Assembly (NCBI GenBank): GCA_963666285.1
Contig: OY762711.1
DNA from: Sedimentisphaerales bacterium
Lineage (GTDB): Bacteria; Planctomycetota; Phycisphaerae; Sedimentisphaerales; SM23-30
Length of the DNA stretch: 64,000 bases
Reading direction: 5' to 3' (one strand)
Position numbers and translations under genes: made by a program. Shown piece by piece: positions 19,969 to 30,523 of this stretch (positions within the stretch are counted from its first letter, which is position 1; the number at the start of each line of letters is the position of its first letter). Below the pieces are notes generated by a model. It was not told the DNA's origin and searched no databases. It saw nothing but the letters and a program-made list of their open reading frames with translations.

Positions 19969-20061
19969 GAATTGCAGTTGAACGCAAATAATGCGTATAG
20001 GAAGAAGGGATAATGTAGTCGATGGCTGCATATAGAAATTGTGAAAACAGGAGAGTCTAAA

Positions 20062-23000
20062 ATGCAAAAGCTGAGTCTAATGATTTTGAGTCTGGTTTTG
20101 GTAGTAAGTGGGATGGTAAATGCTGCTGGTGGGGCTATGCCGGGGAGTGGGACGGAGTCTGATCCGTATTTGATAGAGGATCTGGCGGATTTTGATGTGT
20201 TTGCGGATGAGGCTAATGCCGGGACATATTGGTCGAGCGGTGTGTATACGAAACTGGTGTGTGATATAGATTTGAGCGGTCGGGTGTATGACAAGGCAGT
20301 GATAGCACCGGATACAGATAATACACAATTATGGTATCAGGGGAATAATTACTATGGAGTTTTTGATGGAAATGGTCATAAAATAACCGGTTTGACAATT
20401 ACGCCAACTGCCGGAGAAGATTATCTTGGCCTGTTTGGCAGGCTTTTGGGTTCTACAGCTGCAATAAAAAATCTTAATGTAGAAAATTATTCTATAACAG
20501 GAACCAACTTAAGTGATGTGTTGGGAGCAATATGCGGGATGTGTGTAGAAGCTAAGATTGATAGTTGTCATGGAAAAGGGATGGTGTCAGGATGTTATTA
20601 CCTAGGAGGTGTTTGCGGAGTATTAGCGGGAGGAGAAATAATTGACAGCAGTATAGAATGTGAAATTATTTGCAATAATAGTGTTTATGCCGGTGGTATA
20701 TGTGGTATTATTGATGGTAGTTCTTCTATAACAGACTGCTCCAGTGTAGGTGTAATATCAGGAATTGGTTTTACAAGAAAAATTGGTTGTTTGTGCGGCT
20801 ATAATAATTCATCGACGATCAGCAGGTGCTCGGCAGAAGGTTCGATCAGGCTTGGAGTTGATTCAGAATTAGTTGGCGGTTTTTGCGGCGAGAATAATTC
20901 TGGAACGATTGAACATAGCTATAGCCAGGTTTCTGTCGAAGGAGGTGACAGTTTAGGTGTGTTTTGTGGTTCGAACAATGACGGTACGATACGCAAATGT
21001 TATGCCAGTGGTGATATTCGTGGTGAAAGTAATGTTGGCGGTTTTTTGGGTTATAACAATACAGATGAATATTTAGTAACATATTGTTATTCTTCAGTTT
21101 TAGTATTAGGTATGGATAGGGATACAACGGGCGGCTTTTGTGGTGATTATGAATCCAAATCATCTTTATATTGTATCTACGATGGGGAAAAGAACAGTTA
21201 TTATTATGTTGGCGGTGCGTATCCTGCATCAACAGCCGAGATGCAAATGATGAGTACTTATACTGATAAAAACTGGGATTTTGTAAATTATTCTAATGGC
21301 GGGACAGATTCTGACTGGTATATGGCAGATTATCCGATATTATCATGGCAGATTGAAGAGTTCGTTGAGATGCCTTATGTTGGTAATATACTGCCGTCAG
21401 AAGCAGATGTTATGTTGGCTAATGCAGGTTTGCTTACAGGAGTGGTGAGCAATGAATACAGTAATGTTGTTGCAGAAGGTATGATAATCAGCCTGGAATA
21501 TGAAGCGGGAGACTATCTGGCAAGCGGTTCGAGTGTTGATTATACTGTATCTCTCGGAGTATGGCCGGTAGTGCCGGAGTTGGTAATGATGACATTGGCT
21601 GGCGCAGAATCGGCGATATTGGATGCCGGTCTGGAATTTGGTGGGGCCGGTTATGTTTACCATGATTTCTTCGAGCCGGGAAGAGTTTGCAGTCAGTATC
21701 CTGCTGCGGGTGTAATGTTAGGGGCTGGAGAGAAGGTATATATTAATGTTTCGCTGGGAGTGTGCCCGGGATTGGCAGGCAGCGGAACGGAGGAAGATCC
21801 TTACCTGATAGCGAGCCTGGCAGATTTTGTTGAGTTTTCTGATGTTGATAATGAAGGAGTTTACTGGGCGGAAGGTGTGTATGCCAGGCTAACAAATGAT
21901 ATTGATCTTGAGACAATGAATTATACAAACTCGGTTGTATCGTCATATAATGGTATTTTTGACGGTGATGGTCATGTGATAAGTAATTTGCGGATAGGAA
22001 GTATGGATGGTTTTGGTGACCTGGGACTGTTTGGTTGGCTGCGTGCAGGTTCTGTGGTAAGGGCTCTTGGTCTGGAAGATGTCGAAGTTCGGTCGGGTAA
22101 CAGGTCGAATTATATAGGCTCTCTTTGCGGGATGATTTATGGCGAAGGAGCAAAGATTGAGGGCTGCTATTCAACCGGAAGTGTAACAGCGGGCGAGGGA
22201 GTGAATTTTGTCGGCGGTCTGTGCGGCAGAGTGGCAAACGAAGGTGTATTGACAGATTCGTATTCAGTTTGTACGGTATCTGCAGGTAGGAACTCGGACA
22301 ATATTGGCGGTCTGTGTGGGGCAGTTAATGGCACAGTTGCTTATTGTTATGCCGGGGGAGATGTAAGTGGAGAAGGAGTTAGAGTCGGCGGATTGTGCGG
22401 CGGAATAGGTACGTGGTCGGGTATAACCGGGACAGTATCAAACAGCTATGCAACCGGTTCTATAAGCGGTGTGGATTATGTCGGCGGCTTTTGCGGGGAA
22501 AGTATTTCAGATGTAGTAATAAACTGTTATGCAACAGGCGAGGTAAGCGGCGAAGATTATATAGGAGGTTTTATTGGTTATGGCAGTGCGAGCGGCTGCT
22601 ATGCAACGGGAAATGTTACGGGGGCCTCTAAAGTAGGTGGCTTTGTCGGTTACGGCGGCGGCGAGAATTGTTATGCTACGGGTGAGGTTACGGGATTGGC
22701 TGAGGTTGGCGGTTTTGTCGGAACTTTGTATAATGTCGATGTGAAATATTGTTATTCGACCGGTAAGGTATCAGGGTATTCAGAAGTTGGTGGTTTTATC
22801 GGGGTATTAAAAGAAGGCGTTTCGGAGAGTAATTTCTGGGATGTTGAAGCGAGCGGATTCGGCAGTGTTGGTGATGTATGGGCAGGTTCAACCGGCATGA
22901 CAACGGCACAGATGCAGACGAGGCAGACGTATGGTGATGCGGATTGGAATATGGTTTATCAGGCTTCAAATTATGATTCCCGAGAATACATTGCGCCAGA

Positions 23001-24849
23001 TTGGTATATGGAAGAAGGCAGTTACCCTCAAAAGCCATGGGAGTTTGCATGTGATTTGCTGCCGGGTAAGGGTTCCAGTTACAATCCGTTTCTAATAGAG
23101 GATATCTCTGATTTTGATATTTTATGCGATACACGATATTTCTGTCACGAAGGCGTTCATGTGAAACTAATGTGCGACCTAGACCTTGAAGGAAGGGTTT
23201 ATGATAATTCACCAATAGCTCCTCAATGTTATAGATATTCTGACAATGAAAGATACGTTGAGGTTGGATTTGCCGGGGTATTTGATGGAAATGGTTATGT
23301 TATTAGTAATATTAACATTGAACCAGACGGCGATAATATTATGCAATGCATAGGTTTTTTTGGCAGGGTAAAAGGTGAAAATGCTGAAATTAAAAACCTT
23401 GGAATAGAAAACATAACGATATCAGATACGGTAATGGACAATTACGTTAATGTTTGGGAATATCGGTATGGTGGATTATGTGGTTCAAACCAATATGGCG
23501 TAATAAGAAATTGTTATACTACAGGAATGGTTGGCGGTATAGGATTGTACAGTCAGTTAAGTAATAGTAATGGCGGTTTGTGTGGATACAATCTAGCAGG
23601 CGAAATCACAGGTAGTCATTCATTATGTGATATTTCAGGCGGAGGTGGCGGTTTATGTGGCTGGAATAGGGGAGGTTCAATTACAAATTGTTATGCTGCA
23701 GGTGAAATATTTAATGGCGGCGGTGGTTTATGTGGATATTCACTTGATTATTCACCATCAGCATCATCAGATATTTATTATGCTTCAATAAAAGATTGCT
23801 ATGCTTCAGGAAATGTGAGCGGAAAAAGATATGTTGGAGGTTTTATAGCAAGAAATTGTAGTTTAGTTGAGAATTGTTATGCAACAGGAAATGTTGAAGG
23901 AATTGAATTTCTTGGCGGTTTTGCAAGTTCAAATGAATATGATAGTTTCGTATATCATGCAGGTAATATTTCGCAATGTCATTCGACAGGTGACGTGAAT
24001 GTCAATGTTCCGGCTGATTATATAATTGATGAGGTTTCGTATGCCGGCGGTTTTTGCGGTAAAGGACGTTCAGATATAACAAACTGTTATAGTGAAGGTA
24101 ATGTAACGGTGAATAATGAATGCCCGAATGCCTATAGTAAAGTCGGCGGTTTTTGCGGCGGGAGTGTGTCCTCAACTTTACGTATATCATATTGTTTTTC
24201 GACCGGTTCGGTTTATGCCGGGGCAAATAGCGAAAGTGTCGGCGGTTTTTGCGGATTTAGTAGCCAAGCAACGATATTCAGGAATTATTCCAGGGGCGAT
24301 GTTGAAGGCGGCAAATATGTTGGCGGTTTCCTTGGTTATGCAGATGGATGTTCGATAGGTTATAATTATTCAACAGGCGAGGTTGATGGAAATGAGAAAG
24401 TTGGTGGCTTTGCCGGATATTTTGAAAGTAATCGTGGCGGAGGTTCATTCTGGGATGTAGAGACAAGCGGCATGGCAGATCCAGAAGCAGGAGAGGAAGA
24501 TACTGACGGGATGGCAGGCAAAATGACATCAGAGATGTATGATATTGATACATATCTGGATGCGGGTTGGGATTTCAGATTTGGTCGTGGAAGCGGTACA
24601 ATCAGTTACTGGTATATGCCGGTAGATGATTATCCGATCTTGACCTGGCAGGAAGGTGTTCCGCTGACACCAGATATTGATGGTGATAGGGATATTGATA
24701 TAATAGATTTTACACGATTTGCCAGTTACTGGGGTGAGTGTGATTGTGGCGAGCCAGGCTGGTGCGGTGGAAGAGATTTTGATATGGATCGTTGTGTGAA
24801 TATGAATGATTTGCTTATACTGGCGTCTAACTGGCTGGCGTGGAAGTAA
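20062..24849 (+). CDS. Large secreted GLUG-repeat protein with two PASTA-like domains and dockerin-like C-terminus
   Basis: Signal peptide, VGGFCG/GGLCG repeats, PASTA-like segments, DIDGDRDIDIIDF...DFDMDRCVNMNDL C-terminus; GGAG RBS before ATG 20062. Confidence 0.85.
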   Translation: MQKLSLMILSLVLVVSGMVNAAGGAMPGSGTESDPYLIEDLADFDVFADEANAGTYWSSGVYTKLVCDIDLSGRVYDKAVIAPDTDNTQLWYQGNNYYGVFDGNGHKITGLTITPTAGEDYLGLFGRLLGSTAAIKNLNVENYSITGTNLSDVLGAICGMCVEAKIDSCHGKGMVSGCYYLGGVCGVLAGGEIIDSSIECEIICNNSVYAGGICGIIDGSSSITDCSSVGVISGIGFTRKIGCLCGYNNSSTISRCSAEGSIRLGVDSELVGGFCGENNSGTIEHSYSQVSVEGGDSLGVFCGSNNDGTIRKCYASGDIRGESNVGGFLGYNNTDEYLVTYCYSSVLVLGMDRDTTGGFCGDYESKSSLYCIYDGEKNSYYYVGGAYPASTAEMQMMSTYTDKNWDFVNYSNGGTDSDWYMADYPILSWQIEEFVEMPYVGNILPSEADVMLANAGLLTGVVSNEYSNVVAEGMIISLEYEAGDYLASGSSVDYTVSLGVWPVVPELVMMTLAGAESAILDAGLEFGGAGYVYHDFFEPGRVCSQYPAAGVMLGAGEKVYINVSLGVCPGLAGSGTEEDPYLIASLADFVEFSDVDNEGVYWAEGVYARLTNDIDLETMNYTNSVVSSYNGIFDGDGHVISNLRIGSMDGFGDLGLFGWLRAGSVVRALGLEDVEVRSGNRSNYIGSLCGMIYGEGAKIEGCYSTGSVTAGEGVNFVGGLCGRVANEGVLTDSYSVCTVSAGRNSDNIGGLCGAVNGTVAYCYAGGDVSGEGVRVGGLCGGIGTWSGITGTVSNSYATGSISGVDYVGGFCGESISDVVINCYATGEVSGEDYIGGFIGYGSASGCYATGNVTGASKVGGFVGYGGGENCYATGEVTGLAEVGGFVGTLYNVDVKYCYSTGKVSGYSEVGGFIGVLKEGVSESNFWDVEASGFGSVGDVWAGSTGMTTAQMQTRQTYGDADWNMVYQASNYDSREYIAPDWYMEEGSYPQKPWEFACDLLPGKGSSYNPFLIEDISDFDILCDTRYFCHEGVHVKLMCDLDLEGRVYDNSPIAPQCYRYSDNERYVEVGFAGVFDGNGYVISNINIEPDGDNIMQCIGFFGRVKGENAEIKNLGIENITISDTVMDNYVNVWEYRYGGLCGSNQYGVIRNCYTTGMVGGIGLYSQLSNSNGGLCGYNLAGEITGSHSLCDISGGGGGLCGWNRGGSITNCYAAGEIFNGGGGLCGYSLDYSPSASSDIYYASIKDCYASGNVSGKRYVGGFIARNCSLVENCYATGNVEGIEFLGGFASSNEYDSFVYHAGNISQCHSTGDVNVNVPADYIIDEVSYAGGFCGKGRSDITNCYSEGNVTVNNECPNAYSKVGGFCGGSVSSTLRISYCFSTGSVYAGANSESVGGFCGFSSQATIFRNYSRGDVEGGKYVGGFLGYADGCSIGYNYSTGEVDGNEKVGGFAGYFESNRGGGSFWDVETSGMADPEAGEEDTDGMAGKMTSEMYDIDTYLDAGWDFRFGRGSGTISYWYMPVDDYPILTWQEGVPLTPDIDGDRDIDIIDFTRFASYWGECDCGEPGWCGGRDFDMDRCVNMNDLLILASNWLAWK

Positions 24850-24923: not shown

Positions 24924-25973
24924 CTATTTCCCGTAGCAGATGCTCGGTCCGAGGTGGTTGGGGAAGTGGTTGTTTTCGAAGAGGAACTTGCGGGTATCAT
25001 AGCACAGGTGGCATTTGCCGGTGTAAGTCGGCTTGGGCCGGAATCCGAGCGTGACGGCGTGTTGGGCCAGCCCGTAGGGTCCGGAATTGGTGAGGGTAGA
25101 CCATATCGGATGGGTGGTGAAGTTATAGTCTAGCCATAGGTCTTTGAGCGAGTATTCCGAGTTGATTTTGCCGGTGATAATGCCTATGCAGGTGCTGCTG
25201 AAGACATTTCCCATGCCGTCGATATGGACACCCTTGGCGTCCATGTGTGATTTACGGCATCCGGCGGATTTGAACTGTTCAAACGGTTTCTGGTCAACGA
25301 GAGGAGCGAGTTGTTCAGCGGCTCGGCCAACCATCCGTTCGGGAATTTTGGCGAGAGCGTCTTTGAATGCCTGGTTTAGCTGAGTTTGGCTCATGGATTC
25401 GGTGTGGGTCGGATTAGCGGCGAAATCCCGCCATCGAACCTGTACTTTATCATCGCCGAGTATTTCCGTTGCAATACGTATGCCCCGCTGTACGCATTCT
25501 GTTGGGACATATTGCTGATGATAGCAGTCTGTGCTTATTTGCAGTTTTGTGAGGCCAAGATTGGCGAGTTCTTCTATTCTTTTGGTTGTAATATCGTCAT
25601 TTATACACCATGCTGCGTTGGTTTCGACCTTTTCGAGCCCTCCGAGACGTTCCTGCTGAGCGATTTTGAGGGTGTCGCGCAGAGTTTCATATCGCAGGAA
25701 AGGTTCGCCTCCGGTAATATGTACCAGTCCCTCCTGTCCGCAAAGCTGCCGGGTAGCACGCCAGCAGTCGATAGCCATTTCGAGCGACATTTCAGTATCG
25801 GGTGAGTTGATATCCGGGGCGGAAAAGACATAGCAGCAGGCGCAGGCCGCGGGGCATCGGTAGGTGAGCATAATGCCAACAGACCGCCATAGTTTATACT
25901 TTGGAGCATTGCGAGGCTGGTCCATATTGAAGGCATTTTCGTATAGATTAACAGGTTCTTTCTTATTTGTCAT
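24924..25973 (-). CDS. Radical SAM protein with Cys-rich C-terminal (SPASM-like) region
   Basis: CPAACACC, ITGGEPF, ETNA, CHLCY; start at MTNKK (ORF extends to 26021). Confidence 0.85.
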   Translation of the reverse strand: MTNKKEPVNLYENAFNMDQPRNAPKYKLWRSVGIMLTYRCPAACACCYVFSAPDINSPDTEMSLEMAIDCWRATRQLCGQEGLVHITGGEPFLRYETLRDTLKIAQQERLGGLEKVETNAAWCINDDITTKRIEELANLGLTKLQISTDCYHQQYVPTECVQRGIRIATEILGDDKVQVRWRDFAANPTHTESMSQTQLNQAFKDALAKIPERMVGRAAEQLAPLVDQKPFEQFKSAGCRKSHMDAKGVHIDGMGNVFSSTCIGIITGKINSEYSLKDLWLDYNFTTHPIWSTLTNSGPYGLAQHAVTLGFRPKPTYTGKCHLCYDTRKFLFENNHFPNHLGPSICYGK

Positions 25974-26477
25974 ACAGGGAATTTTAGCTTTTTGAGTCGA
26001 AATTAGCAAGGAAAGATACAAACTTCAGACTATCAGTAAGTCAGTTTGTGGTTATGGAAGATTGGAGTATGAAGAGTTAAGGTATTGCATGCCGGTAAAA
26101 CTGTTAAATAATGGCAGAAAAGCCGTTAAACAAGCGAATAACCTGTTATTTCATGGTAATATTGATTATAGTTTTCGTTAGATTTTTTGAGAGAGGAAAG
26201 TGGAAAAATGCTCTGTAGATAGCTCTAAAATGGCAGGAAAAGGCCTGAAACGTAAAAATTTTGCATTTTTAGCGATTTTTTTATACTTTTTCTCAACTTT
26301 TTGCTTTGCAAAAACCGATTTAGAGAGTAAAAATAGAGCTATATTATCGGACATGACTATTTCGTTATGAATTAAGCTTTATTTAAAGGACTGGATAAAG
26401 AGAGATACTTTGTACTGTGTGCGGCATAACGTAAGGCCGCTTGTATTATATTACTTATTCTCATGGAGGATACGATT

Positions 26478-26735
26478 ATGGCGAAAAAAGCCGCGAAGAA
26501 AACTGCTAAAAAACCTGCTAAGAAAGCTGCTGCTAAAAAACCTGCTAAGAAAGCTGCATCAAGAGAAGTATTGGTTGTAGCCAGCAAGGTAAAAGCTTAC
26601 ATCAAGAGCAAAGGCATGATGTGCAGCAGTGACGCTGTTCAGGCACTATCAGAAAAAATTTACTGCATCCTGGATTGTGCATGCACACGCACCGAAGCTA
26701 ACCGTCGCAGCACAGTTAAGCCTCAGGATCTGTAA
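26478..26735 (+). CDS. Bacterial histone-fold protein with Lys/Ala-rich N-terminal tail
   Basis: Core EVLVVASKVKAYIKSKGM..SSDAVQALSEKI...RRSTVKPQDL resembles Bdellovibrio HBb/Bd0055 (recalled as EVLVVTSKVKKLIK...RKTVMARDI); GGAGG RBS at 26465-26469. Confidence 0.85.
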   Translation: MAKKAAKKTAKKPAKKAAAKKPAKKAASREVLVVASKVKAYIKSKGMMCSSDAVQALSEKIYCILDCACTRTEANRRSTVKPQDL

Positions 26736-26974
26736 TTTTTGTGGTGTTCCTGATGAGTGTTTAGCGAAAGCGGTAATACATTTTCGCTAAAGATGATAAG
26801 GCTGAGAGTAATATCTTCTCAGATAAGAAATCATCGAAGTGTCTCATAACTGCACTGTGGTAAATATCGCAAATGCGGGGGTTGTGCTTATATTCGTAGG
26901 GTACAATTTTACGCTAAAGGTGACAGTAGTATTTGAGAACAGATTACGATTCAGTAAAACCCGAAAAGACAAAG

Positions 26975-27004
26975 AAAAGCCGGGCATTTATGTTCGGCTT
27001 TTTT
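26975..27004 (+). terminator. Rho-independent terminator
   Basis: AAAAGCCGGGC-ATTTAT-GTTCGGCTTTTTT. Confidence 0.75.
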
Positions 27005-27036
27005 ATTTTAAATCAAGCAGGTTAATTCCGGAAGCA

Positions 27037-27418: not shown

Positions 27419-27640
27419 TTACTTACCTGAACCTGTTAATCTGTCAAGTGCAGATTGAGCGTCCGTATCTCCCTGCTCCGCCGCTTTGCGATACCATTTC
27501 ACAGCCTCAGTATAGTTTTGTTCATCATAATATTCTAATCCTAAATTAAAACACTCTTCTTTGGATTTGGCGGCATAAGACTGTTCACTAATTCCTAAAA
27601 CCAATGCTGACACTATCAATATAATACTTACTTTTTTCAT
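27419..27640 (-). CDS. Small secreted protein with a single Sel1-like repeat (possibly truncated)
   Basis: Signal peptide; FNLGLEYY..NYTEAVKWYRKAAEQGDTDAQ. Confidence 0.7.
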   Translation of the reverse strand: MKKVSIILIVSALVLGISEQSYAAKSKEECFNLGLEYYDEQNYTEAVKWYRKAAEQGDTDAQSALDRLTGSGK

Positions 27641-28609: not shown

Positions 28610-30523
28610 ATGGAATCTGATCTTCAAGCTGTAACTGAAAATTTGAATTATATCTGGGTATTGATGTGTGCGGGACTGGTATTCTTTATGCAGGCTGGTT
28701 TTATGTGTGTTGAATCCGGGTTGGCTCGTGCCAAGAATTCTATTAATGTTGCGATCAAGAATATGGCCGATTTCGTGCTTGCCACAATCCTGTTCTGGTT
28801 TGTTGGCTTTGGCATTATGTTCGGCAAAAGCTGGAATGGCTGGTTTGGCACTTCAGAGTTTATGATCAACCTGGACAATACCTGGGAAATTGCTTTTATG
28901 ACTTTCCAGATTGTGTTCGTTGGTACCGCTGCGACTATCGATTCCGGTGCTGTTGCCGAACGAACCAAGTTCATGTCTTATCTTATTCTTTCTGCCATTG
29001 TTTCTTCACTTATATACCCGGTATTCGGTCATTGGGCCTGGGGTAGTCTATTCTTCAACGATCAGGCAGGATGGCTCGAAAATATGGGCTTCAAGGATTT
29101 CGCCGGGTCAACTGTTGTCCATTCTGTCGGTGGCTGGGTTGCTCTTGCCGGTGTTATTATTATTGGTCCGAGAATGGACAAGTACGATGAAAACGGTAAT
29201 CCCAGGAAGCTGCATCCGCACAATATGCCGCTCACTTATCTTGGCACATTCATTCTTATTTTTGGCTGGTTCGGCTTTAATTGCGGCAGTACCCTTGCTG
29301 CTACAAAAGATATCGCACCAATTGCCTTTAACACCATTCTTTCCGGCTGTTTCGGTTGTGTGGTTTCTTCTGCTCTCAGTACTTTATTCAGCCATGACAA
29401 ACACCCGGAAGGTGAGATGATCGCCAACGGCGTTCTCGGCGGGCTGGTCGGTATTACTGCCGGTTGTGCCTTTGTCGAATCTACCGGTGCTATGTATATT
29501 GGTATAGGCTCAGGCTTTGTGGTATATTTTGGTTCACTTTTTATCGAAAGAGTTCTAAAGCTTGATGATGTGGTAGGAGCGATTGCGGTTCATGGTCTTT
29601 GCGGGGCGTGGGGAACAATTGCTGTTGGACTTTTTATCACCGATGCGAATCTCGGCGAACTTACCAGGCTTCAGCAGCTATGGGCACAATGCGTTGGCGT
29701 GGTAACGGCTTTCTTCTGGACTTTCATCACGAGCTTTATCATTATCAAACTGATCTCAATGTTTAACGGTGGTATGCGGGTTTCTCGCGAAGATGAACTC
29801 ATGGGGCTGAATGTTGCCGAACATGGAGCATCATCTTCTATTCTGGAACTTGCCAACGCAATGGACAAGGCTACCCGCACCGGAGATTTCTCCGAAGCTG
29901 TTAAGATCACCGAAGAAGTTGGCACCGAAGCCGGTGATCTCGCTCGCGGTTTCAATCTCATGGTCGATACTGTCCGTTCTGCTCTCGAAAGAACTCAGCA
30001 GCAGGTAATCGCAGTCAGCAAAGCCCAAGAGGAAAGTAGGAATATGCACGAACAGCTCGAGAGTAACCAGCTTGAATATTCGACCAGGATCGAGCAGATC
30101 GCATCGAATCTCAACGCTATGATTGCTGAACTTGATAACTCTATGGCTGTTATCGCCGGTGCCGCTGATAATGTCGGAGTAAATGCTACCGATCTCCAAT
30201 CTCAAATCGATTCTATCCATAAGTCTTTGAAGAAGATCGACGAGATATCAAATACTATCAACCTGATATCTATGAACGCGATGGTTGAAGCTGCCAGGGC
30301 CGGCGAGTCCGGCAGAAGCTTCGCGGTTGTCGCGACAAACATGAAAAAACTTGCCGGAAATTCCAATGATATTACTCAGGAAATTCATAATATTGCTGAT
30401 GGCATATTTAATAAGCTTAACGATGTTCTGAATAGTATACGCGAACAAATTGAAATTGCCGGTAAAGGCAAAGAGTCAATTTTGAATGCTAATGTCCTTG
30501 TTAGTAATCTTATTAAAGAATAA
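28610..30523 (+). CDS. amt: Ammonium transporter (Amt) fused to a methyl-accepting chemotaxis-type signalling domain
   Basis: FMQAGF, SGAVAER, DFAGSTVVH, WFGFN, DDVVGAIAVHG; C-terminal INLISMNAMVEAARAGESGRSFAVVA (MCP hairpin tip). Confidence 0.9.
   Translation: MESDLQAVTENLNYIWVLMCAGLVFFMQAGFMCVESGLARAKNSINVAIKNMADFVLATILFWFVGFGIMFGKSWNGWFGTSEFMINLDNTWEIAFMTFQIVFVGTAATIDSGAVAERTKFMSYLILSAIVSSLIYPVFGHWAWGSLFFNDQAGWLENMGFKDFAGSTVVHSVGGWVALAGVIIIGPRMDKYDENGNPRKLHPHNMPLTYLGTFILIFGWFGFNCGSTLAATKDIAPIAFNTILSGCFGCVVSSALSTLFSHDKHPEGEMIANGVLGGLVGITAGCAFVESTGAMYIGIGSGFVVYFGSLFIERVLKLDDVVGAIAVHGLCGAWGTIAVGLFITDANLGELTRLQQLWAQCVGVVTAFFWTFITSFIIIKLISMFNGGMRVSREDELMGLNVAEHGASSSILELANAMDKATRTGDFSEAVKITEEVGTEAGDLARGFNLMVDTVRSALERTQQQVIAVSKAQEESRNMHEQLESNQLEYSTRIEQIASNLNAMIAELDNSMAVIAGAADNVGVNATDLQSQIDSIHKSLKKIDEISNTINLISMNAMVEAARAGESGRSFAVVATNMKKLAGNSNDITQEIHNIADGIFNKLNDVLNSIREQIEIAGKGKESILNANVLVSNLIKE

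Follow-up and report, generated by a model that had tools for sequence, protein, structure and literature searches.

Our analysis indicates that gene P0001, at positions 26478-26735 on the plus strand of the window (the whole 64,000-nucleotide stretch of a Sedimentisphaerales genome that was analysed), quite probably encodes a genuine bacterial histone of the alpha3-truncated face-to-face (FtF) type represented by HLp, whose N-terminal tail would serve as a polycation of the kind known from linker histone H1. This reading explains the observations best overall. The gene comprises 85 codons and a stop (ATG 26478, TAA 26733-26735); residues 29-85 form the histone-fold core (26562-26732, plus strand) and residues 1-28 the tail (26478-26561, plus strand). 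Bacterial histones are a young field: HBb and HLp are the two that have been characterized, and both are without a real tail.

The core consists of alpha1 (residues 35-44), loop L1, alpha2 (51-74), loop L2 and a one-turn alpha3 (82-84). Its C-terminus reads R77-S-T79-V-K-P-Q-D84-L, which is the histone signature RxTVxxxD that the preliminary description of this DNA had recognized at the end of a core of about 57 aa. A phmmer search against PDB sequences matched residues 26-84 to HLp of Leptospira perolatii (9qt0) with E 1.1e-18, followed by HBb of Bdellovibrio (E 5e-4) and HTkC (E 0.28), and 1510 homologues were found at E≤1e-3 among 8000 scored candidates. Since the match to HLp is this strong and the homologues this many, the assignment to histones is not a matter of chance. 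The AlphaFold2 model, built with 104 homologues, has block-mean pLDDT values of 92-96 over residues 31-85. Compared with known structures by Foldseek, it finds histones as its top matches: 9qt0_A at TMt 0.95, with an rmsd of 0.8 Å and 61% identity, and then HBb and HTkC at TMt 0.83-0.88. The model thus shows alpha1, alpha2 and a short alpha3, with HLp as the closest histone fold. FtF histones have an alpha3 cut down to 3-4 residues and a shortened alpha2, and the protein conforms to this: it stops at L85, one turn past L2, and aligns with HLp end to end.

Profile libraries give no hint of this relationship. A Pfam scan of the protein returned no histone family even at E≤10, and an NCBIfam scan returned none either; both yielded only sub-threshold matches of low complexity. 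In particular, the protein did not reach the Pfam gathering thresholds of CBFD_NFYB_HMF or DUF1931, and a genome-wide search for DUF1931 found no match. Wherever a source names one of the listed homologues or cluster members, the name is 'hypothetical protein', apart from two evident mislabels. The practical point is that the FtF histone family goes unrecognized by Pfam and NCBIfam.

Core residues were mapped onto those of HLp, as these are named in the parts of PMC12701072 that were covered, using the phmmer alignment (our numbering equals that of HLp plus 22). The tetramer triad of HLp (R49, N53, R55) is present as R71, N75 and R77, and its RD clamp (R55-D62) as R77-D84. The DNA contacts of alpha1 (A13, S14, K15, K17 and K21 in HLp) correspond to A35, S36, K37, K39 and K43, and those of loop L2 (K54, R59) to R76 and K81; all of these contact residues, together with T79, are conserved here. 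Changes are found in the tetramer network, with A74 and Q83 at the places of S52 and T61, and among the loop L1 contacts to DNA, with C49 and S51 at those of T27 and G29. R71 and D84 do not vary across the 104 aligned homologues, and each of N75, R77, T79, S36 and K37 is conserved in at least 90% of them. All five top residues of the FtF logo (R48, N52, R54, T56, D61) are found in the protein as R71, N75, R77, T79 and D84, as in the FtF category of Schwab et al. 2024, which includes archaeal HTkC (PDB 9F2C; PMC11390915, parts covered). With them come both the RxTxxxxD motif with the RD clamp of FtF histones and the R48/N52 pair between dimers, the absence of which distinguishes bacterial dimer histones.

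A complex prediction with four copies of the chain reached an ipSAE of 0.86, whereas three controls scored 0.00 at best, with contacts that agree by at least 98% between runs and a partner pLDDT of at least 77; the mark applied was reached by 20 of 30 solved homo-pairs and 1 of 23 single chains, counts that hold only roughly for the present case. In the predicted complex the scored chain contacts one partner over residues 30-85, as in the histone handshake, and a second over residues 70-71, 74-75, 77 and 81-84, which is the tetramer interface of HLp. The four-copy pass may echo memory of solved complexes (HLp 9QT0, HTkC 9F2C) and is to be read as a likeness, not as proof of assembly. According to the model, two chains would pair as a handshake dimer, and two dimers would associate by way of R71, N75, R77 and the C-terminal turn to give a ring-shaped tetramer, around which some 60 bp of DNA would wrap by analogy with HLp.

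The protein could instead be a dimer that bends or coats DNA, like HBb (Bd0055) of Bdellovibrio bacteriovorus (PDB 8CMP, 8FVX, 9EZZ), and not a tetrameric wrapper. The two share the alpha3-truncated fold (TMt 0.83-0.87), the RxTxxxxD motif and about 41% identity; the match to HBb is significant (E 5e-4, TMt about 0.87), and the oligomeric state proposed here is a predicted one. However, HBb is dimeric and nearly tail-less, and it has S and D at the positions of R71 and N75, two residues that are nearly invariant among the relatives of our protein and that the four-copy model uses for its second interface. Identity to HLp, at 61%, exceeds that to HBb, and bacterial dimer histones lack the R48/N52 pair according to the parts of PMC11390915 covered, which makes a dimer of the HBb kind distinctly improbable. 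The preliminary description had likened the core to Leptospira and Bdellovibrio histones alike: it was right about a bacterial histone, more precisely one of the HLp-like FtF kind, and the dimeric Bdellovibrio type has to be given up for the sake of R71 and N75. Its statement that the Bdellovibrio histone is essentially tail-less agrees with the phmmer alignment of HBb, which begins at chain residue 3-4.

The tail precedes the core in the reading frame, and its translation deserves attention. A Shine-Dalgarno sequence, GGAGGA (26465-26470, plus strand), lies 7 nt upstream of ATG 26478, so the strong ribosome-binding site first reported for this 85-aa ORF is indeed there; a second in-frame ATG, at 26463, overlaps this sequence and has no Shine-Dalgarno of its own. 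From the best 80 of the 483 species-level genomes with a relative we fetched 80 loci and recovered 77 ORFs, 75 of which open with MA(K/N/Q/G/T) after a GGAG/GAGG-type Shine-Dalgarno 5-10 nt upstream. The next in-frame methionine is M47, within loop L1, and a start there would remove alpha1. Given the well-spaced Shine-Dalgarno, the same layout in 75 of 77 loci and the location of M47, we conclude that the tail is translated. A start after the tail, which would turn the tail into an annotation artefact and which the preliminary description had named as a danger to its reading, has nothing in its favour but the general risk that goes with low-complexity 5' ends, and we hold it to be very improbable.

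The gene stands alone, as had been described: the neighbouring long ORFs (24924-26021 and 27419-27640) are both on the minus strand. It is single copy in its genome, and among 80 related loci no conserved operon partner was found. The divergent upstream ORF of 365 aa (24924-26021, minus strand) has a CxxxCxxC-like motif and looks radical-SAM-like by eye; it is kept in L003, L004 and L007, three of the 80 related loci and all of them high-scoring, and the other neighbours in the window recur in 0-1.

With 12 Lys, 11 Ala and 2 Pro in residues 1-28, the tail is as Lys-rich as was first noticed, and it is predicted to be disordered. Block means of pLDDT are 52 for residues 1-10, 55 for 11-20 and 67 for 21-30, the last block taking in two residues of the core. 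In the DSSP assignment, secondary structure starts only at residue 35. The perfect 27-nt tandem repeat of the preliminary description was recovered by TRF at 26503-26557 on the plus strand (period 27, 2.0 copies, 100% matches, score 110), and it encodes AKKPAKKAA twice (residues 10-27). KKPAKK occurs twice, beside AKKAA-type units, which places the tail among PAKK/KAAK repeats in disordered segments like those of HupB, Hc2 and AlgP, a compositional class and not a homologous family. The Pfam models HC2 and Hc1 do not match the protein, and a PDB sequence search with the tail alone returned nothing at E≤10. With its K/A/P composition, and without the R/G/S/T/Q-rich motifs of H3 and H4 tails, the tail presumably resembles the C-terminal domain of H1.

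Tails of the eukaryotic core histones suggest another function, namely a platform for regulated acetylation or methylation of lysines that would tune chromatin. The 12 Lys in a disordered, exposed segment would suit it, but none of them holds a fixed position: the tail is of low complexity, ranges from 4 to 52 aa between families and varies even among the close relatives P0002-P0006, so that a conserved sequence with fixed modifiable residues, as in eukaryotes, is not seen. Its composition is closer to what we take to be that of the H1 C-terminal domain than to that of H3 and H4 tails. Neither an acetyltransferase nor a deacetylase gene adjoins the histone gene in the ORF list of the window, and the sole recurrent neighbour is the radical-SAM-like one (3 of 80 loci). 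Despite a precedent in actinobacteria, where HU with a Lys-rich tail has been linked to deacetylase-dependent compaction (PMC11229371, as far as covered), we consider a modification platform unlikely. The word 'eukaryote-like', used of the tail in the preliminary description, is apt if the C-terminal domain of H1 is meant and should be dropped if core histones are, the tail being conserved in neither length nor sequence.

Relatives of the gene allow the tail to be followed across lineages. A search of contigs with a 35-sequence alignment found the 483 species-level genomes mentioned above, the best 80 being mostly Planctomycetota (Phycisphaerae, Sedimentisphaerales, Anaerohalosphaeraceae). Among the 120 nearest clusters at 90% identity, 116 have a tail of at least 10 aa (median 18, maximum 52), and the net charge is at least +4 in 116/116. 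Of the 150 best representatives at 50% identity, 116 gave usable single-domain matches; 86 of these have a tail of at least 10 aa, which is strongly basic in 70. Histone matches were obtained in 62 of 301 sampled genomes of the class and many other families of the class are without any, while within the order of the window the match is found in 39 of 43 other genomes (by family 4/4, 21/23, 3/4, 9/10 and 2/2).

Tail length was tabulated by family from 54 of 60 fetched regions that could be parsed, the dropped ones being four weak f7 and two f14 matches. It is 22-39 aa in f1, the family of the window itself, whose own tail counts 29 by the same measure, 13-23 aa in f2 and 44 aa in f3, where three of three genomes agree (L121-L123). 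Families f4, f5 and f10 have short tails of 4-7, 8 and 7-8 aa respectively, and f14 has 8-16 aa. One outlier of f2 carries the longest tail, 52 aa, in a protein of 108 aa with the source name Anaerohalosphaera lusitana (P0062, locus L104). Tail length is family-specific, between 4 and 52 aa, which is a description and not a test, as the relatives are non-independent.

Tails grow by in-frame tandem repeats. Among the retrieved sequences, a subset of the 1510 homologues to which our counts of tail repeats and of cysteine columns refer, such DNA repeats occur in 13 of 18 distinct tails of at least 20 aa, with periods of 12-63 nt. P0002-P0006, the nearest relatives with 91-95% identity in the best local alignment, retain the first twelve residues and differ in the body of repeats. 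Metagenome contigs cover positions 26489-26530 about seven- to fourteen-fold more deeply, owing to other contigs with similar Lys/Ala-coding DNA; since there are several of these, such tails or repeat proteins must be frequent in that community. Two runs from one metagenome sample contain the stretch unchanged, as DNA contigs, and may be where it came from; no tail-length variants within the same organism were seen in the metagenome contigs.

Growth by repeats raises the question of whether the tail does anything at all, as it might be low-complexity sequence that is close to neutral and prone to slippage, with selection acting on no more than a short basic N-terminus. The 27-nt duplication, being perfect, points to a recent event, repeats are present in 13/18 long tails, and relatives with tails of 4-8 residues persist. 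On the other side, the tails stay in frame and basic (all 116 of at least 10 aa among the nearest 120 are at +4 or more), and their lengths cluster by family, which suggests constraint over drift, with the caution that relatives are not independent of each other. We find a tail free of selection quite improbable.

A polycationic role similar to that of linker histones is favoured for the tail, by analogy, because its KKPAKK and AKKAA motifs match H1-like tails and because mycobacterial HupB offers a precedent. The 28-residue Lys/Ala/Pro tail of each chain would leave the core at the N-terminus of alpha1, beside the DNA-contact motif A35-S36-K37 ('paired ends of helices'). By a count from the sequence, each core bears a charge of about +4 and each tail contributes +12, so that a tetramer has about +16 without its tails and about +64 with them; 60 bp of DNA carry about 120 phosphates. 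The tail could thus be a built-in polycation of the H1 C-terminal type that increases affinity for DNA, neutralizes charge, and bridges or condenses DNA. It would lengthen and shorten through slippage of the in-frame tandem repeats. A long tail seems inessential to the basic function of the histone, because many relatives of the same order manage with 4-8 residues.

These considerations can be taken one step further, though tentatively, as we think the following proposal rather more likely to be wrong than right. In it, the Sedimentisphaerales-type FtF histone merges the functions of core and linker histones in one chain: DNA wraps around a ring tetramer with four H1-like polycationic tails, tail length, set in each lineage between 4 and 52 residues through slippage, determines how closely adjacent particles or DNA segments are packed, and separate Lys/Ala-repeat proteins add linker-like activity. 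If this were true, tail length would be a dial by which evolution could adjust compaction of the nucleoid. It may then track ionic conditions, the longest tail (52 aa) being that of the protein with the source name Anaerohalosphaera lusitana, and here the link to salt is a guess.

The histone is not the sole candidate nucleoid protein of its genome and need not be the main compactor, because a gene of the HU/IHF family and free-standing Lys/Ala-repeat proteins are also present. The single HU/IHF gene (G000:C1:5409879-5410235, plus strand; L002:1489-1845) encodes 119 aa, of which about 27 at the C-terminus form an acidic, Gln/Pro-rich extension, opposite in charge to the tail of the histone; an HU/IHF gene was found in 45 of 46 sampled genomes of the order. 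Leptospira, on the other hand, is reported to be without HU in the covered parts of PMC12701072. Two proteins consist of AKK/VKK repeats almost throughout (96 aa, G000:C1:3784621-3784908, plus strand, L145:301-591; 115 aa, G000:C1:655640-655987, plus strand, L146:388-735). Neither has a Pfam match, and they may add linker-like activity beside the tailed histone. A further protein, of 261 aa (G000:C1:4732073-4732855, minus strand; L147:301-1083), joins a folded N-terminal part to a Lys/Thr/Ala-rich C-terminal tail, and this tail matches chlamydial HC2 weakly and below threshold (PF07382; 19 bits, with the cut-off at 40; E 0.0014).

Codon usage suggests that the histone may be abundant. Its CAI, a proxy for expression, is 0.704, inside the range of ribosomal proteins (0.63-0.78), and ranks at the 99.2nd percentile among the 2399 ORFs that have at least 300 codons and at the 93.5th among length-matched windows; the reference set comprised 25 Pfam-verified ribosomal and IF1 genes, and the index is noisy for a gene of 85 codons.

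No published measurement of DNA binding, oligomeric state or abundance was found for this protein or any planctomycete homologue, nor did we find literature on the histone fold in Phycisphaerae. With HLp (PDB 9QT0-9QT2; PMC12701072) the protein shares the truncated alpha3, the R/N/R tetramer residues, the RD clamp, the Lys contacts of alpha1 and a single-copy gene, at 61% identity over a core of 56-57 residues. In contrast to the 28 Lys/Ala-rich residues here, HLp has about seven disordered N-terminal residues, which are unresolved in the crystals (PMC12701072, parts covered). The HLp gene, moreover, lies beside smc and map, which the histone gene here does not.

As to tails, the covered parts of PMC11390915 report that FtF histones occur in Planctomycetota, that bacterial FtF histones commonly have positively charged tails, and that archaeal members are generally tail-less. 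The closest functional analogues lie outside the histones. HupB/MDP1 of mycobacteria (PMC5676037, PMC5974015) and chlamydial Hc2 (PMC2848022) have a disordered Lys/Ala/Pro repeat tail of variable length on a nucleoid protein; in what was covered of these papers, the PAKK/KAAK tail of HupB is indispensable for binding to the nucleoid (PMC5676037) and Hc2 varies in length with the number of its Lys-rich repeats (PMC2848022). Their core is HU or absent and their tail C-terminal, whereas here an N-terminal tail precedes a histone core, and the likeness is one of functional analogy, not of homology. Among histones, the tailed ones of Asgard archaea and the core histones of eukaryotes do extend a histone fold by a basic, disordered N-terminal segment. 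They differ from our protein in being of the nucleosomal type with a full alpha3, and the eukaryotic tails keep their sequence and modification sites.

Tailed FtF histones in Planctomycetota have already been published, and the gene described here is one further clear case, with a long tail and a freshly duplicated repeat. What our results add is the family-specific length of the tail, its growth by repeats, and the coexistence of the histone with an HU/IHF gene and with free-standing Lys/Ala-repeat proteins; the main text of PMC11390915, in the parts covered, gives no family-level account of tail length or of the origin of repeats. Planctomycete FtF histones form a natural series with the same core and tails of 4-52 residues, and at least one member is assigned by its source to a described species (Anaerohalosphaera lusitana, P0062). 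With such a series, the role of a histone tail outside eukaryotes becomes directly testable.

It is more difficult to explain the cysteines of the core. All four that had been counted are there, at positions 49, 63, 67 and 69 (codons within 26622-26684), where HLp has T, A, D and L. Among the 120 nearest homologues Cys is found at column 63 in 65 and at column 49 in 47, less often at 64 (25), 60 (20), 67 (15), 47 (11) and 69 (10). Co-occurrence is strong, C49 being present in 11/11 sequences with C47 and in 25/25 with C64, and Phycisphaerae histones show two alternative patterns, 47/49/60/63/64 or 49/63/67/69. Our default reading is conservative exchange of small residues in anaerobes together with shared ancestry; the cysteines could alternatively form a metal or redox site. 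Were the wider proposal on tail length to hold, the recurrent Cys at columns 49, 63, 64 and 67 might bring in control by redox state or metal.

The surroundings of the gene contain a few further features. Downstream of the stop codon, two hairpins (26759-26824, plus strand) are a possible 3' end structure; the RNA fold of 26733-26830 has -25.8 kcal/mol (z -2.99 against 200 shuffles), and the hairpins are not followed by a U-run. A terminator-like site of consensus type follows at 26973-27004. An Rfam match to BSnc120 (26946-27019, plus strand) overlaps this terminator-like hairpin and is probably due to chance, with 25 bits against a gathering score of 114 and E 0.014. Two Leu/Phe-rich ORFs, of 56 aa (26410-26580, plus strand) and 71 aa (26372-26587, minus strand), are readings of the Lys/Ala repeat DNA in another frame and in antisense, and are very probably not genes. 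Elsewhere in the window, a secreted repeat protein of 1602 aa is encoded at 20041-24849 (plus strand), and an ORF of 637 aa (28610-30523, plus strand) appears by eye to combine an ammonium-transporter membrane domain with a C-terminal part like the signalling domain of methyl-accepting chemotaxis proteins.
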